Positions 8,424-20,722 of a stretch of 64,000 nt of DNA are shown in pieces. The stretch is taken from assembly GCA_000004695.1 (NCBI GenBank), contig CM000151.3, positions 5,472,001 to 5,536,000 on the forward strand, written 5' to 3'. Each line of letters opens with the position of its first letter. The first letter of the stretch is position 1. Source of the DNA: Dictyostelium discoideum. Taxonomy: Eukaryota. The notes beneath the pieces were generated by a model. That model saw only the letters and a program-made list of their open reading frames with translations. It made no database searches and was not told the DNA's origin. A program made the position numbers and the translations under genes.

Positions 8424-9572
8424 TGTTTATGTATGTGTTGAGAAATGTGTGTAAAAAATAAAAAAAAAAATGATTGTTTTTGAAAATTTTCAAAAAAAAA
8501 AAAAAAAAAAAAAAAATTAAAAAATTAAAAAATAAAAAAAAATAAAATAAAATTTTTTTTTTAAAAAAAAATACATTTCGAATTTCTCTATTTGTTCAAA
8601 AGAAGATTTTATTTCAATATAAAAATCAATAAAATATCAAATTGATAAATGGATTAAGGGGTTATAGAAATTTTTATCATTTTGGGTAATTATTTTAGAA
8701 TGTTTCAATAAATTTTTTTTTTTAAAAAAAAATAAAAATAAAAATAAAATAAAAGAAAAAAAAAAATAAAATAAAAAAAATAAAAGAAAAAAAAAAATAA
8801 AATAAAATAAAAGAAAAAAAAAAAAAAAAAAATTTTGTAGATCACAAAAGATTTTTTAAATCTTAATTAAAAAAAAGAAATTCATACCAAAATTTTTAAC
8901 ATTATTTTTATTTTTTTTTTTATTTACTTTTTTTTTTTTTTGTTTTTATTATTTTTTTTTTAAACTTTTTATTTTTTATTTTTTTTTATTTTTAGTATTC
9001 TTTTTTTAATTTGGGTTCATATGCATAATTCAAAAGAAATTTAATGTGTTGAATTTTAGATATATCACAATTACAATAAAATTTTAAAGTTTCCTTTAAA
9101 AGAAGTGTGTGTGGTGTTTGTGGGTTTTTTTTTTTTCTTTTACTATTGTTTATTTTTTTTTTTAAATTTAGGGTTTCAATTTCATTAAAAAAAAAAAAAA
9201 AAAAAAAACCACAACACTCTAAGTTTAAGAAAAAAAAAAAAAAATTATTTATTTATTTTTTATTTTTAAAAAAAAAAAAAAAAAAAAAGAATATTAATAA
9301 CTTTTTTTTTTTTATTATTTTTTTCTTTTATTTTAAAAATTATTCAGTATACAACCAAAAAAAAACAAATAAAATAAAATAAAAAATGTAGGTTTAATAT
9401 CTGTTTTAATCTTAATTTTTTTTTTTTCTAAATAATAAATTTTATTATTTTTTTTAAAATGATCAAGAATAAACTTAAATAAATTGGTTGGAATGAAATT
9501 TTAATTTAATATTTTTAAAACAATAAAATTTTTTTTTTTTATACCATAATAAATATTTTCACACACAACATT

Positions 9573-9610
<38 letters not shown>

Positions 9611-9814
9611 ATTATTTTTTTATTTAATTTTTTTTGTTTTTTTTTTTTTTAATTTTTTTTTTTTTTTATTTTTTTTAATTTTAAAAAATTCACAATTGTG
9701 TGTGTTATATATAATAAATATTTAAATATTAAATAATAAAAATAATAAATAAATTAAAATAAATCAAGGTAAATTGACTCTTTTTTTTTTTTTCAATTTT
9801 TAACCTTTTTACAA

Positions 9815-9851
<37 letters not shown>

Positions 9852-10190
9852 TTAAAGTTATTTTTAAATATATTTATTTTTCCACATAAATACCAATAAC
9901 AAGCAAGCCCAAAGTGCCACAATCTTTTTTTTTTTTTTTTATATATTATTTTTATTTTTAAAATTAATTTTTTTTTTTTTTATTTTATATTTTTTTAATT
10001 TTTATACAACACTCAAATATATCATTTTATTAATAAAATAATTTTCTTTTAAAAATTATTTATAGTTTTTTTTTTTTTTTTTTTAATCCTTTTTTATCCA
10101 TTTTAATAAAATTTTTTTCTAAAAAGAATAGTTTTAATACATTTTGGTTTATTTTTTTAAAAAAAAATAAATTTCTAAGTTAAAGAAAAA

Positions 10191-10567
10191 ATGATGATGA
10201 CATTAACTGATCAAGAAACAGAGATTATTAAAGAAACATGTAAAGTTGATAAACCTGTTAAATTAATAGAATTATCACAGGCACCAAGAATATATAGAAT
10301 TCCAGGATTTTTAACGGATGAAGAATGTGAATTTTTAATAGATACATCCAAGAATAAACTTAGACCATGCAATGAAATATCATCTGGTGTACATAGAAGT
10401 GGTTGGGGTTTGTTCATGAAAGAAGGTGAAGAAGATCATCAAATCACTAAAAATATATTTAATAAAATGAAATCTTTTGTAAATATTTCAGAAAGTTGTG
10501 AAGTTATGCAAGTTATTAGGTAAATATTTTAAAATATATTTTAAATTAATTTTAATTATTAATAATA

Positions 10568-10599
<32 letters not shown>

Positions 10600-10952
10600 A
10601 TTTTTTAAAAATTAGATATAATCAAGGTGAAGAAACATCATCACATTTTGATTATTTTAATCCATTAACAACAAATGGATCAATGAAAATTGGATTATAT
10701 GGGCAACGTGTTTGTACTATTTTAATGTATTTATGTGATGTTGAAGAGGGTGGTGAAACAACATTTCCAGAGGTTGGAATTAAAGTTAAACCAATTAAAG
10801 GTGATGCTGTTTTATTTTATAATTGTAAACCAAATGGTGATGTTGATCCACTTTCACTTCATCAAGGTGATCCTGTACTTAAAGGTAATAAATGGGTTGC
10901 TATCAAATTAATTAATCAAAAAAGTAAGGAAACTGGAACACCAACTCAATAA
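10191..10952 (+). CDS. Prolyl 4-hydroxylase alpha-like 2OG-Fe(II) dioxygenase. Two exons: 10191..10519, 10616..10952.
   Basis: Exon 1 reads ...RIPGFLTDEECEFLID... (P4H N-terminal motif). Donor is ag|GTAAAT, acceptor is aattAG. Exon 2 has H-x-D (SSHFDYFNP), a distal His (SLHQGDPVLKGNKW) and VAIKLI, the 2OG oxygenase facial triad and substrate-binding motif. Confidence 0.7.
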
Positions 10953-11234
10953 ATATTTAGATTTTTTTTTAAATTAGTGATAACATTTTAAAATAAAAAA
11001 AAAAAAAAAAAATAAAATTAATTATTAATAATAATAATAATAATAATTAATTAATTAAAAAATAGAAAATAAAAATAAAAATATTAAACAATAATAATTC
11101 AATTATATAATTAATTTTGTAATTTTTTTTATTTTATTTTATTTTTTTTTTTTTAAATATTTTTTTTTTTTTTTATTTATTTATTTATTTGTTTTTTTTT
11201 TTTTTTTTTTAAATATATTATTATTATTATTTAT

Positions 11235-16130
<4,896 letters not shown>

Positions 16131-17206: not shown

Positions 17207-17417
<211 letters not shown>

Positions 17418-17641
17418 TTAATTAGTTATTTGATTAATTTTCATTAAGGAAATAAAAAAAATTAATATTTTATTTATGAATTTTAATTTTGAAAATGCAA
17501 GCAATTATTTTGATTTTGAAAATACAAGTATTATTATAATAAAACTTGTATTTTAAAATAAAAAAAAGTAATTATTATTTTTGTTTAGATTTAAAAACAG
17601 ATTTAATGCATTGAATTTAGAATTTTTAATGTTTAAATATA

Positions 17642-17652
17642 GAATCGAACCT
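17642..17652 (-). promoter_or_regulatory. External B-box-like element (aGGTTCGATTC) about 30 bp downstream of the tRNA 3' end.
   Basis: Dictyostelium tRNA genes commonly carry an ex-B box (GGTTCGAATCC-like) downstream. This copy matches 10 of 11 positions. Confidence 0.4.
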
Positions 17653-17683: not shown

Positions 17684-17764
17684 TGTTGGCGGCGAGATTC
17701 GAACTCGCGAAGCCGAAGCATAAGAACTTGAGTCTTACCCATTTGACCACTCTGGTACGCCAAC
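17684..17764 (-). tRNA. tRNA-Leu(CAA), class II with a long variable arm.
   Basis: Minus-strand read: GTTGGCG TA CCAGAGTGGTCAAATGGG TAAGA CTCAAGT TCTTA TGCTTCGGCTTC GCGAG TTCGAAT CTCGC CGCCAAC A. The 7-bp acceptor stem pairs perfectly. Anticodon loop is cuCAAgu. T-arm is GCGAG/CTCGC with a TTCGAAT loop. No encoded CCA. Confidence 0.85.
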
Positions 17765-18251
17765 GAAAATATATGGTTTTTTCCCACAGTAATAGCTGTT
17801 TTCGATTCAAAAAAATGATCTTTTTGGGAACATAATCGTTTAAACTAAACCGCATTATCCCCACTTCTTTCAAATGTTATTTTCTTTTATTTTGATCCAG
17901 AAAAAAAAAAAAATTCAAAAAGAAAAAAAAGAAAAGAAAAAGAAAAGAAAAGAAAAGAAATGGGAAAAAAAGAAATAATTATTTTTATTTCTTATTATTT
18001 CTAAAAAAAACTTTGCAAAAGATTTTAAAAAATGAGTTCAGAAACAATAAATAAATAAAAACACAAAAATCAATAAAAAAGATTAATAAAATAATGCTGA
18101 AAAACAATAAAAGTAATAAAATAAATTTAATATAAAATTTAATAAAAGCCAATAAATTAAAATATATATATTTTTAATTTTATTTTGAAATTTCATTTGA
18201 TTTTTGTTCAAATTAAAGTGAATTATTTTTACAATTCATTTGTTATTATTT

Positions 18252-18299
<48 letters not shown>

Positions 18300-19389
18300 T
18301 AAAAAATTGCATTTTATTATTTCTATCATTAAAATTTTATTTCGATTTCAAAGAAATTTATAGTTTTATCTAGAACATAGTCAATACTATTTTCACTTTT
18401 TATTATATTTATTTTTATCTTAATTTAAATGAGATTTAAATTTTATTATTAAAAAAAATCTTTTTTTCAATTTTTTTTTTTAATTTTAGACATATTTTAT
18501 TTTCTTCTTTTTTCTTTGAAATTATATTTAACAAACACATGTTTCAAATAGTAAAATTTTTTCAAATTTTTTTTTTTTTTTTTTATTATTATAATTTATT
18601 TTTTTTATTATTACATTTTATCTTTTTTTTTATTACATTTTTTTTTTTTTTTTTTAAAATATATTATTATTATTATTATTTTATTGTTTCATTTCGAAGA
18701 AACAAATTTTAAAAAAATTTTATTACTTTTTTGTTTTTAAAATAAATTGATGTAATGTTTGTGAATTAATTTTTATAAATATGAATAATTTTTTTTGGGA
18801 AATATTAATTATCAGAGGATCCAAATAATGAAAAAGAAGAGCAAGAATATCTAATAAATAATATTTAAGATGTTGGGGCTTCTAATTATATTAATACAAG
18901 ATCCCATCAAAATATTTATGATAATTTTTATAATTTGATATAAATAATAAAATAAACAATGTGGTAAATAATATTCAAACTACCATTTCATCTTTACCAT
19001 TATCTCTATTATCACCATTATCATCATCATCATCTACATCATTAGCATTATCAACCGTTTCATCTTTACCATATATGTCAAAAAGATTCACCTTTTCGTG
19101 AAGATTATCAGCAGGTGGAGTACCAGAGTGGTTAAAAAGAGCCATCATTACCATGGAATTCAAAGGGTAAAGTTTCAGAGTGGTCAAAAAGAACCATCAT
19201 TACAATGTAAATCCTTTATGAGAGGAAACTGTTTATTCACACAAGATTAAAATAATAAAAAATGGTATTGAACATAAATGATAATTTAGAGTAGGCATAA
19301 TTTTTTTATATATAATCATATACTATTTTATGATTTATAAATCTTACTAACACTTTTAATATTTTAATTTTTTTTTTTTTTTAAATGAA

Positions 19390-19672
19390 AAACACCAGGA
19401 TTGGAATTGAAATTCTAGTTGAAATTGTAAATGAAATTGCAATTTGAATTGTAATTTAAAGTCTCAATTACAATTACAATTTCAATTGAAAGTTTCAATT
19501 ACACTCAAATACAATTTCATTTACAATTTCGACCAGAATTTCACTCCAATCCTGGTGGTTGTCCCATTTTTTTTTGAATGGAATAACGAAATTTTTAGTT
19601 GCTTCTTCTTGAGATATAACTCATTTTATTAATTTTCTTATTAGATATTACAGGTGCCTTTTAAGGTTGTAT

Positions 19673-19730
<58 letters not shown>

Positions 19731-20109
19731 GTTGAGGGTGTAGAGTGTGTTTAGTGACGTAATATATTTGTTGAGGTTTGATGGTAGTGCTACTGTGTGT
19801 AGTGGTGAGTTCCAGTGTTTGCTAAATCTTTCGAGTTGTAGGGAGATGATGTTTTTGAATTTTTTTATTTGTTCGTTGTTGGGTGCTTTTTTTTCTTGTC
19901 TGATTAGTTTGTATATGTTGTTTTTTGTTCTTTCCCAGGCTGCTGTTTGAGTTTTCTTTAGTTCGTGTACTAGTAGTTGTTTTCTTAAGTTTTTGAGTGT
20001 TATTCCTTCGTGGATTTTCTTGTTTCTTCTTCTCCAGATGTTTTCGCAAATAATGGCTATGGCGTTGGCTGTTAATGGAATGTCTAGTCTGTTGAAGATT
20101 TCTATTCCC

Positions 20110-20163
<54 letters not shown>

Positions 20164-20525
20164 TTATTTATAGAAAATACTGAGTGAATTATTGTATTTT
20201 TTGAGATGTTTAGGAAGTTCTATTGCGTGAAGAGGTGAGTTCCATTGTCTGTTAAATTGTAATAGCTTTAGCGAGATTAGTGAGTCTAATTTATTTTGTT
20301 CTTCTGGCCGTTGCTTTGATTTGATTCTTAATGTTTTGTTTATAACCGCTTGTGTCCTGTCCCATGCAGCTCTTTGTGTTTTAATTAGTTCAAGTATGAC
20401 TTGTTGTCTGTGAATTATTATTTCTTTTTCATCGTGAATGAGTTTGTTTCTTTTGTGCCATGTGGTTGTCCCTTTTTTTTTTTTTTTTTTTTTTTGAATT
20501 GGCATGTGGTTGTCCCATTAAAAGA
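19390..20525. mobile_element. Fragments of a tRNA-gene-targeted retroelement (TRE5-like non-LTR). Two diverged ~380 bp modules, each ending ...tggttgtccc + T20-T50, plus a 164 bp palindrome. The interval sits directly upstream of the + strand tRNA.
   Basis: Base composition departs from the surrounding AT-rich DNA (GT-rich on +). Module 1 is 19740-20116 and module 2 is 20165-20475; they share agtggtgagttccagtgtttgctaaatctttcgag / agaggtgagttccattgtctgttaaattgtaatagctttagcgag. The motif tggttgtccc-T(n) recurs three times (19553-19578, 20462-20495, 20505-20525). The element ends about 30-48 bp before the tRNA 5' end, as TRE5 elements do. No RT or ORF2 coding is present; these are remnant modules only. 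Confidence 0.4.
19394..19557. repeat. Imperfect 164 bp palindrome (two ~80 bp arms) at the edge of the retroelement remnant.
   Basis: Left arm: caccaggattggaattgaaattctagttgaaattgtaaatgaaattg... The reverse complement of the right arm, ...caatttcatttacaatttcgaccagaatttcactccaatcctggtg, matches it with a few mismatches. Confidence 0.75.
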
Positions 20526-20550
20526 GCCATCATTACAATGGATTTCAAAG

Positions 20551-20631
20551 GGTAAAGTACCAGAGTGGTCAAATGGGTAAGACTCAAGTTCTTATGCTTC
20601 GGCTTCGCGAGTTCGAATCTCGCCTTTATCA
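20551..20631 (+). tRNA. tRNA-Leu(CAA)-like. The body is identical to the 17684-17764 gene but the acceptor stem differs (GGTAAAG/CTTTATC, with one G-U pair).
   Basis: GGTAAAG TA CCAGAGTGGTCAAATGGG TAAGA CTCAAGT TCTTA TGCTTCGGCTTC GCGAG TTCGAAT CTCGC CTTTATC A. It folds as a cloverleaf. D, anticodon, variable and T arms are identical between the two copies. Confidence 0.6.
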
Positions 20632-20722
20632 ACAGTTTTTAAAGTTTTCACAGTTTGGACTTGTTTTAAAAAAAAAATCTTCCACATATTTTGAATTCAC
20701 TAGAAATTTTTTATAATAATCG

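Follow-up and report, generated by a model that had tools for sequence, protein, structure and literature searches.

A divergent tRNA-Leu(CAA) gene pair of Dictyostelium discoideum with paired acceptor-stem differences and TRE5 insertions upstream of one gene

We analyzed a 64-kb stretch of chromosome 2 of D. discoideum AX4 (here referred to as the window; 5,472,000 is added to its positions to obtain chromosome coordinates). It contains exactly two tRNA genes, both called as tRNA-Leu(CAA) by ARAGORN. A preliminary description had reported a minus-strand and a plus-strand tRNA gene pointing away from each other, and the ARAGORN and Rfam calls, as well as the coordinates in Table S2 of PMC5391098, bear this out. 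The genes and an accessory motif are as follows.

17684 to 17764, minus strand (AX4 chr2 5489684-5489764): LeuCAA-3, tRNA-Leu(CAA); acceptor stem GTTGGCG/CGCCAAC, discriminator A, T5 terminator 5 nt downstream
20551 to 20631, plus strand (AX4 chr2 5492551-5492631): LeuCAA-1, tRNA-Leu(CAA); acceptor stem GGTAAAG/CTTTATC with G2-U71, discriminator A, T5 terminator 4 nt downstream
17641 to 17651, minus strand: external B-box-like motif GGTTCGATTCT, read from the sequence, 32 nt downstream of LeuCAA-3

The two divergent genes are separated by 2,786 nt. In a covariance-model check, both scored well above the Rfam RF00005 gathering score of 29 (LeuCAA-3, 56.2 bits; LeuCAA-1, 54.4 bits), with full-length matches (model positions 1 to 71 of 71). 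Standard pairs account for 22 of 23 in each gene, the sole exception being the usual 13:22 position. Both have a cloverleaf with a 7-bp acceptor stem, the anticodon CAA at position 35 (ARAGORN), a long variable arm (10 nt, GC/GC stem), and A73 following the acceptor stem, i.e., the features of a class II tRNA-Leu. The internal A and B boxes (TACCAGAGTGG and GGTTCGAATC) are the same in both genes, and the 3' trailers are similar (ACAG(G)TTTTT). In D. discoideum, 66% of tRNA genes are followed by an external B box at a distance of approximately 41 bp (PMC3159450); at the position downstream of LeuCAA-1 that corresponds to the LeuCAA-3 motif (about 20652-20663, AGTTTGGACTTG), the B-box-like motif is degenerate.

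Each gene is 81 nt long; positions 8 to 73 and the discriminator A were 100% identical between the two. All eight differences fell within the 14 acceptor-stem nucleotides, with none among the other 67 (Fisher P = 9e-8). Three pairs (1:72, 3:70, and 7:66) are common to both stems, and the remaining four differ between LeuCAA-3 and LeuCAA-1 (2:71, U-A versus G-U; 4:69 and 5:68, G-C versus A-U; 6:67, C-G versus A-U). Each of these four is changed on both strands, and 100% of the acceptor positions are still paired; by our own calculation, the chance that 4 + 4 random changes would hit the same four pairs and leave all of them pairing is approximately 7e-4. The earlier statement that the D, anticodon, variable, and T arms are identical is correct, but the acceptor stems, which had been called completely different, differ in four of seven pairs, not in seven. 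The minimum-energy fold closes the acceptor stem in both tRNAs (LeuCAA-1, -19.7 kcal/mol; LeuCAA-3, -25.9 kcal/mol), LeuCAA-1 being weaker by 6 kcal/mol. The predicted mature, CCA-ended LeuCAA-1 tRNA would start with GGUAAAG (stem partner, CUUUAUC) and end with CUUUAUCA / CUUUAUCACCA.

Pairs and triplets of tRNA genes with the same anticodon are a known feature of this genome (genome paper as cited in PMC8163159), with examples in Table S2 of PMC5391098, in which LeuCAA-3 (chr2 5489684) and LeuCAA-1 (chr2 5492551) are themselves listed. The present pair resembles the others in that the two genes lie a few kilobases apart. Its members, however, are not identical; given the four differing acceptor pairs, each is counted separately among the 75 isodecoders of the genome. 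Together they form an 84-nt inverted repeat (94% complementarity), and the flanks can be aligned over a few nucleotides only. Two further genes with this anticodon, LeuCAA-2 (chr2 6482159-6482239) and LeuCAA-4 (chr6 310825-310905), are unlinked.

In a second D. discoideum assembly (GCA_054883475.1), the tRNAs are identical and the interval differs by homopolymer lengths and one SNP only; thus, the pair and its interval are not an assembly artifact. No match was obtained with the tRNA body in metagenome scans or with concatenated tRNA translations in a protein search for spurious gene models. The exact small open reading frames over the tRNAs were absent from the protein collection, and a full-text literature search did not find the tRNA sequence strings. 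A search of the interval for further RNAs, with Rfam at permissive thresholds, gave chance-level matches only, and a scan for sigma-70 promoters and terminators, a model irrelevant to this locus, was not above chance.

Retroelement sequence is confined to the right third of the interval (19567-20499), in or next to which the following features were observed.

19567 to 20112, minus strand: 5'-truncated TRE5-C-type element, identified by homology to a copy at another locus (L002) and to TRE ORF2 proteins; ORF2 3' end (19728-20112), A53 run (19675-19727), C-module-like 99 nt (19576-19674), and terminal A9 (19567-19575)
20113 to 20460, minus strand: TRE5-A fragment; last ~300 nt of ORF2 and an A49 run
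19555 to 19566 (distal) and 20506 to 20517 (proximal), plus strand: 12-nt target-site duplication GTGGTTGTCCCA, flanking the TRE5-A/TRE5-C composite
20473 to 20499, minus strand: mini-insertion ATTC-A23, 51 nt from LeuCAA-1 (at -52; direct repeat D20)
20456 to 20472 and 20500 to 20516: 17-nt target-site duplication TGSCATGTGGTTGTCCC, flanking the mini-insertion

The subfamily names used here, TRE5-A and TRE5-C, follow the structural description in PMC3159450 and not reference sequences. The TRE5-C-type element aligns end to end with the L002 copy, which lies 43 bp upstream of a tRNA-Ser(GCU) gene (about 90% BLAST identity; 92% mean column identity in a MAFFT alignment that includes short flanks), and the two part company directly past the terminal A-run. 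Its protein homologs are C termini of D. discoideum TRE ORF2 with a zinc knuckle (CCHC), and its C-module is 77.8% identical to that of TRE5-A, the published value between TRE5-A and TRE5-C being 78% (PMC3159450). The TRE5-A fragment is 97.7 to 97.9% identical to copies at two other loci (L004 and L005). The L005 copy runs on through an A-run, a ~290-nt B-module, a further A-run, and a C-module, conforming to the ORF2-BC structure of TRE5-A (PMC3159450), whereas the fragment described here stops at the internal A-run after ORF2, without a B or C module.

According to the published rule, the 5' end of a TRE5 element faces the 5' end of a tRNA gene from 47 ± 3 bp upstream, and TRE-TRE tandems form. 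The insertions upstream of LeuCAA-1 have this position (46 nt for the TRE5-A fragment once the later mini-insertion is subtracted, and 51 bp), the canonical head-to-head orientation in all cases, ORF2 homology, 5' truncation, a C-module plus oligo(A) end, target-site duplications of 12 to 17 nt, and tandem accumulation. The proposal of a TRE5-type arrangement upstream of a tRNA gene was therefore supported. In the preliminary description, the interval had been regarded as a landing zone shared by both genes; it does hold TRE5-type fragments, but only LeuCAA-1 is served, and none is recognizable upstream of LeuCAA-3 save a doubtful ATTC-A7 remnant. The sequence ATTCAAAAAAA has only three occurrences in the 64 kb, all of which precede one or the other of the two tRNAs in TRE5 orientation. 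Two details depart from ordinary TRE5 insertions. One insertion is reduced to ATTC-A23, which we take, from its sequence, to be the very 3' terminus of a TRE5 C-module followed by the tail. In addition, the TRE5-A and TRE5-C pieces adjoin directly, lack a duplication at their junction, and are jointly bracketed by a single duplication pair, which suggests an origin by template switching or internal priming.

Beyond the elements lies a short tandem array related to LeuCAA-1.

20520 to 20550, plus strand: 5' flank of LeuCAA-1 (F0, 31 nt), recurring with the first 23 nt of the gene at 19135-19188
19114 to 19165, plus strand: fossil unit A; first 23 nt of a tRNA-Leu (GGTGGAG-TACCAGAGTGGTTAAA) and a 29-nt flank copy (direct repeat D17)
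19166 to 19213, plus strand: fossil unit B; GGTAAAG-TTTCAGAGTGGTCAAA and a flank copy (direct repeats D15 and D17)

The recurrence of flank and gene start is a direct repeat of 54 nt (D15; 93%), for which a pattern search gave two matches against zero expected; unit B and the flank preceding it are 93% identical to the flank and 5' end of LeuCAA-1. The copies bear LeuCAA-1's own flank and were thus derived from the gene, not the reverse. Their acceptor 5' strands form a series, with GGTGGAG in the distal unit A, GGTAAAG in the proximal unit B and in LeuCAA-1, and GTTGGCG in LeuCAA-3 as the outgroup. GGTGGAG is intermediate between GTTGGCG and GGTAAAG, an argument that depends on one 23-nt copy; it can pair with CTTTATC via two G-U pairs. 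Like other isodecoders with compensatory stem substitutions, the two tRNAs share anticodon and fold, and the double substitutions keep Watson-Crick or G-U pairing; here, however, variation is restricted to the acceptor stem, the body is invariant, and an apparent intermediate state is kept in the upstream fossil copy.

Two other readings of the array were rejected. The 52-nt units are not one long TRE target-site duplication, in that two of them follow each other immediately, without an intervening element. Within the tRNA-Ser(GCU) cluster, a TRE5-A duplication sits inside a unit. Nor are they a minus-strand coding repeat, given that the 52-nt period shifts the reading frame with every unit. 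We found no description of tandem units composed of a 5' flank and a tRNA 5' end in the searchable literature. The nearest parallel is the external B box, in which an internal promoter element is likewise duplicated outside, and next to, the gene (PMC3159450), as is the case 32 nt downstream of LeuCAA-3; the units upstream of LeuCAA-1 differ in holding the acceptor 5' strand, the A box, and the flank, tandemly repeated. The gene pair and its TRE5 insertions are ordinary and already known, and the new detail is the fossil tandem copies at 19114-19213.

Both tRNA genes are presumably functional. TRE5-A targets the TFIIIC/TFIIIB complex (PMC3159450), and tagged TRE5-A(bsr) integrated de novo at both genes (LeuCAA-1, 1/33/1726 reads; LeuCAA-3, 1/0/92 reads; Table S2 of PMC5391098), indicating that the complex assembles there. 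In a tRNAscan-SE 2.0 run on this genome, 407 genes and only three pseudogenes (undetermined, Ser-TGA, and Leu-TAA) were reported (PMC13063481). LeuCAA-1 has neither a broken cloverleaf nor a low score nor, judged from that published run, a pseudogene flag. In the tRNA-seq literature, 51 of 54 nuclear isodecoders were detected, with no pseudogene reads; the texts of the tRNA-seq papers do not name the Leu-CAA isodecoders, and the supplement of PMC13063481 contains no Leu or CAA entries.

On the basis of these results, we consider it likely that LeuCAA-3 and LeuCAA-1 are functional Pol III genes that arose by an old local inverted duplication, as with many same-anticodon pairs in D. discoideum, and that compensatory stem drift and repeated TRE5 targeting of LeuCAA-1 followed. 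The flanks, alignable over so few nucleotides next to an unchanged body, point to the age of the duplication. The tRNA body (i.e., the A/B box promoter, the D, anticodon, variable, and T arms, and A73) would have been held constant by purifying selection, to which, rather than to gene conversion, we attribute its identity. Meanwhile, the interior of the LeuCAA-1 acceptor stem would have drifted from G-C rich to A-U rich, the direction that we infer, by compensatory substitutions that kept pairing throughout, probably through G-U intermediates under the A+T mutation bias of the genome. TRE5 would have integrated repeatedly approximately 47 bp upstream of LeuCAA-1, head to head, because this gene carries the TFIIIC/TFIIIB complex, yielding the TRE5-A/TRE5-C composite and then the later poly(A)-only mini-insertion. 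These insertions would have displaced by 1.3 kb an older array of 5' flank and tRNA 5' end, in which the intermediate acceptor sequence would be preserved.

Concerted evolution is an unlikely account of the identical interiors. Gene conversion between inverted copies 2.8 kb apart would keep the interior the same, while the acceptor ends, lying by diverged flanks, would escape and be selected for pairing only. The 94% complementarity of the 84-nt inverted repeat fits this idea, as do the 66 consecutive perfectly identical nucleotides between diverged flanks and the restriction of differences to the two ends of the gene. However, the 3' trailer past the diverged 3' acceptor strand is similar again (A-ACAG-T5), a poor fit to a simple edge effect. 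Because such conversion still requires selection for pairing and two functional genes, it is a variant of the old-duplication explanation and not its opponent.

We regard as distinctly improbable the combined proposition that the tandem arrays of 5' flank, acceptor 5' strand, and A box, which are present at LeuCAA-1 and the tRNA-Ser(GCU) cluster and predate the TRE5 insertions, are an undescribed, mechanistically specific feature of Dictyostelium Pol III loci, and that the A-U-rich, GG-initiated stem makes LeuCAA-1 a functionally distinct isodecoder of different stability or turnover, not a product of neutral drift. Under this proposition, the arrays could be a trace left by staggered nicks or stalled forks at the TFIIIB/TFIIIC complex; alternatively, they could serve as promoter or decoy elements outside the gene.

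It is very improbable that LeuCAA-1 is decaying, its stem eroding toward A+T and the gene persisting only because it provides a Pol III promoter and a landing pad for TRE5. All four changed pairs are indeed shifted toward A-U or G-U, the stem is the weaker of the two, the external B box is degenerate, and the gene begins with GG. A GG start combined with a weak stem is associated with CCACCA tagging. The weaker stem and the degenerate external B box also count against the old-duplication explanation. Nevertheless, neutral decay would hit the body and break pairs, whereas the eight substitutions are all compensatory and none lies in the other 67 nt; LeuCAA-1 scores less than 2 bits below its partner in Rfam, was not flagged in the published tRNAscan-SE analysis (PMC13063481), and is a strong in vivo TRE5-A target. 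The last two points also count against the earlier suggestion of a pseudo-tRNA, as the published run contains no Leu-CAA pseudogene and tagged TRE5-A integrates de novo at LeuCAA-1 (Table S2 of PMC5391098).

Least probable of all is a chimera, a possibility raised in the preliminary description and here taken to mean that TRE-mediated rearrangement or recombination with the upstream array put a foreign 5' end and acceptor strand on a LeuCAA body: retroelements do adjoin LeuCAA-1, and the 54-nt copy of flank and gene start 1.4 kb upstream makes recombination between array and gene physically conceivable, but 34 bp separate the gene from the closest element junction, both TRE insertions end at least that far away with target-site duplications intact as in simple insertions, no break in similarity within or bordering LeuCAA-1 falls on a mobile-element junction, a 5' graft leaves unexplained the matching 3' acceptor changes 60 nt away on the element-free side, the fragment copies derive from the gene and not the reverse, and the acceptor stems of the other D. 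discoideum Leu tRNAs compared, LeuAAG (GTAAGCT) and LeuTAG (GGGAGAT), from the sequence table of PMC8163159, do not match.

Situated in a well-annotated model genome, the locus is a textbook case of retrotransposition targeted to a tRNA gene; the flag of a pseudo- or chimeric tRNA can be removed. The pair suggests that D. discoideum tolerates variation at pairs 2:71 and 4:69 to 6:67 of tRNA-Leu(CAA) as long as they pair, a testable statement on recognition by LeuRS, RNase P, and the CCA enzyme. Fossil tandem copies of tRNA 5' ends upstream of some genes offer evidence, rarely available within a locus, on the order in which compensatory changes arose, and may also indicate a recurrent duplication mechanism at Pol III promoters.

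One further feature lies directly distal to the 12-nt target-site duplication.

19393 to 19560, no strand assigned: near-perfect 170-nt palindrome

The candidate GGGACAACCAC, considered as a 5' end common to the elements, was rejected, as it is a target-site duplication; its copy at 19555 additionally forms the outer end of the palindrome arm. The palindrome is single copy across all sequence compared, and its DNA fold has an energy of -55.4 kcal/mol (z = -11.9).

ARAGORN detected exactly two tRNA genes in the 64-kb window, both tRNA-Leu(CAA), and both were full-length matches to the Rfam tRNA model (gathering score, 29 bits). The divergent tRNA-Leu(CAA) pair of the preliminary description was thus confirmed. 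The two genes lie 2,786 nt apart in a window of ~20% G+C, and the following features of the region were considered.

17684-17764, minus strand: tRNA-Leu(CAA) gene LeuCAA-3 (ARAGORN; Rfam tRNA model, 56.2 bits)
19114-19213, same orientation as LeuCAA-1: two tandem 52-nt fossil units, about 1.4 kb upstream of LeuCAA-1
19567-20112, minus strand: putative TRE5-C-type element, matching a TRE copy in comparison locus L002 over its whole length
20113-20460, minus strand: putative TRE5-A fragment (97.7 to 97.9% identity to copies in comparison loci L004 and L005)
20473-20499: 27-nt mini-insertion ATTC-A23, flanked by a 17-nt duplication
20551-20631, plus strand: tRNA-Leu(CAA) gene LeuCAA-1 (ARAGORN; Rfam tRNA model, 54.4 bits)

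The starts and ends of both genes coincide with those in Table S2 of PMC5391098 (LeuCAA-3, AX4 chr2 5489684-5489764; LeuCAA-1, chr2 5492551-5492631) at an offset of exactly 5,472,000, which places the window at AX4 chromosome 2, 5,472,001-5,536,000, and shows that both had already been annotated; only two other LeuCAA genes are shown there (LeuCAA-2, chr2 6482159; LeuCAA-4, chr6 310825). The D. discoideum genome is described as known for pairs and triplets of tRNA genes with the same anticodon (PMC8163159), and Table S2 contains many examples (PMC5391098). The present pair is of this kind, with one member fronted by a canonical TRE5 tandem, and the locus is already known both in kind and as an instance. 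In the independent assembly GCA_054883475.1, the tRNAs are identical to this pair, with a single SNP and altered lengths of three homopolymers as the only differences in the interval between them.

Both tRNAs have all sequence-level features of class II tRNA-Leu, and their 3' trailers start similarly (ACAG(G)TTTTT). Direct alignment showed identity at 73 of 81 positions. The acceptor stem, with its 14 nucleotides, accounts for all eight differences; the remaining 67 positions show no mismatch (Fisher p = 9e-8). Three of the seven acceptor pairs are invariant (G1-C72, U3-A70, and G7-C66), while four changed from LeuCAA-3 to LeuCAA-1 (U2-A71 to G2-U71; G4-C69 and G5-C68 to A-U; C6-G67 to A-U). 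The acceptor stems had been called completely different, which overstates the divergence, although the rest of that description, including identity outside the stem, was accurate. Each changed pair is altered on both strands, with pairing intact throughout the stem; by our own calculation, four changes per strand in the same four pairs, all still pairing, would arise by chance with a probability of ~7e-4. The acceptor stem is closed in the predicted folds of both RNAs, but that of LeuCAA-1 (-19.7 kcal/mol) is less stable by 6 kcal/mol than that of LeuCAA-3 (-25.9 kcal/mol). This strictly compensatory, acceptor-only divergence of two neighboring isodecoders is mildly interesting.

LeuCAA-1 starts with GG, and its acceptor stem is A-U rich with one G-U pair. 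A GG start and a weak acceptor stem are the two features tied to CCACCA tagging of unstable tRNAs. Speculatively, on these sequence features, LeuCAA-1 could be a candidate for such tagging. Two CCA-adding enzymes are described in D. discoideum (PMC7432833).

The suggestion that LeuCAA-1 is a chimeric or pseudo-tRNA was not supported, and none of the pseudogene or chimera features that we tested was found. The nearest element junction is 34 nt from the gene, and the duplications of both insertions are intact. The 3' acceptor strand changed together with the 5' strand though the 3' side is free of elements, and the 67-nt body is unchanged, whereas neutral decay would be expected to alter the body too. 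A published tRNAscan-SE 2.0 run on D. discoideum gave 407 genes and 75 isodecoders; its pseudogenes number only three (one of undetermined type, Ser-TGA, and Leu-TAA), none of them Leu-CAA (PMC13063481). De novo integrations of tagged TRE5-A were mapped in three libraries at LeuCAA-1 (1, 33, and 1726 reads) and LeuCAA-3 (1, 0, and 92 reads) (PMC5391098), and the TFIIIC/TFIIIB complex is described as the TRE5-A target (PMC3159450). The TRE fragments upstream of LeuCAA-1 likewise show that a Pol III complex has occupied this gene over evolutionary time.

Repeated DNA between the tRNAs is limited to 19567-20499. The distal element matches the L002 copy, which precedes a tRNA-Ser(GCU) gene by 43 bp, at ~90% BLAST identity (92% mean column identity in a flank-inclusive MAFFT alignment). 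Homology spans the 3' end of ORF2, an A-run inside the element, a 3' module of ~100 nt, and the terminal A8-9 tail, directly past which the sequences diverge. Its translation resembles the zinc-knuckle C terminus of D. discoideum TRE ORF2 proteins. The L005 copy of the proximal fragment has the order ORF2 end, A-run, ~290-nt module, A-run, C-module, and tail. TRE5-A has the architecture AB-ORF1/ORF2-BC, the 3' B-module is missing from TRE5-B and TRE5-C, and the C-modules of TRE5-A and TRE5-C are 78% identical (PMC3159450); the two C-module types compared here are 77.8% identical. From this structure, not from reference sequences, we infer that the distal element is TRE5-C type and the proximal fragment TRE5-A.

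The 5' ends of both elements face the LeuCAA-1 5' end, as in the strict TRE5 orientation, and TRE5 elements integrate at 47 ± 3 bp and form TRE-TRE tandems (PMC5391098). Removal of the mini-insertion places the TRE5-A 5' end 46 nt from LeuCAA-1. The elements resemble TRE5-A and TRE5-C in spacing, head-to-head orientation, and tandem accumulation; where they lie, which way they point, their similarity to ORF2 and the C-module, and the target-site duplications around them all conform to TRE5. The retroelement landing zone proposed to be shared by both tRNAs applies to one of them: TRE5 fragments lie 46 and 51 nt from LeuCAA-1, but no comparable element lies upstream of LeuCAA-3. At L004, the ARAGORN tRNA (Arg-UCG) nearest to a TRE5-A/TRE5-type tandem (9523-11436) is 2.8 kb away, on the other side of a protein-coding gene model.

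An exact 12-nt duplication (GTGGTTGTCCCA, at 19555 and 20506) brackets the two pieces together. There is no duplication at their junction, and the TRE5-A piece ends at its internal A-run, without a B or C module. Given the single outer duplication and this stop, the composite is probably the product of either a single chimeric insertion, through template switching or internal priming, or two separate events in which the middle duplication was lost; the junction structure suggests a chimeric cDNA over two clean insertions. The 17-nt duplication around ATTC-A23 reaches into the TRE5-A fragment by 5 nt, which makes this insertion, 51 nt from LeuCAA-1, later than TRE5-A.

Each fossil unit begins with the initial 23 nt of the tRNA, which cover the acceptor 5' strand and the A box and stop in the D loop, and continues with a copy of the 29-nt 5' flank. 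Together with its flank, the proximal unit shows 93% identity to the current LeuCAA-1 flank and gene start and carries GGTAAAG; the distal unit carries GGTGGAG and a more diverged flank. With LeuCAA-3 (GTTGGCG) as the outgroup, GGTGGAG agrees with LeuCAA-1 at positions 2 and 6 and with LeuCAA-3 at positions 4 and 5, and it could still pair with CTTTATC via two G-U pairs. This one 23-nt copy fits a stepwise path from GTTGGCG via GGTGGAG to GGTAAAG that would have run through G-U intermediates, in a genome biased toward A+T. The fossil intermediate is mildly interesting.

Similar arrays, in gene-sense orientation, lie upstream of three clustered tRNA-Ser(GCU) genes (L002, 4790-4900 and 8249-8345; L005, 7622-7670 and 10813-10942). 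Their units are 39 nt (~18 to 24 nt of tRNA 5' end and 15 to 21 nt of flank), versus 52 nt at LeuCAA-1. One gene has an exact unit copy at -39, and at another, three full units lie on the distal side of a TRE5 cluster of 3.2 kb. At the latter, the TRE5-A duplication falls within a unit, which indicates that the arrays predate the TRE5 insertions. No such array was found upstream of LeuCAA-3 or a tRNA-Arg(UCG) gene, nor any description in the searchable literature. These upstream arrays are mildly interesting as well.

An acidic Asp/Asn-rich ORF-like stretch (…NHSGTPPADNLHEKVNLFDIYGKDETVDNANDVDDDDDNGDNRDNGKDEMVV*; 18960-19187, minus strand) extends out of the LeuCAA-1 units; absent among the genes called in the other assembly, it could be what remains of a gene or an ORF that arose by chance. 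ATTC-A7 (17805-17815, plus strand) is oriented like a TRE5 and lies upstream of LeuCAA-3 by 41 to 51 nt, with no clear target-site duplication around it. The sequence ATTCAAAAAAA occurs only three times in 64 kb, at two genuine TRE5 3' ends and at this ATTC-A7, which may be the remnant of a TRE5 with extreme 5' truncation. A (TTA)n microsatellite of ~75 repeats (17209-17440) separates a LYAR-like gene from LeuCAA-3. Directly distal to the TRE5 target-site duplication is a near-perfect ~170-nt palindrome (19393-19560; DNA fold, -55.4 kcal/mol; z = -11.9), single copy among all sequence compared and possibly an element of the foldback or MITE-like type; the duplicated 12-mer overlaps the outer end of its arm.
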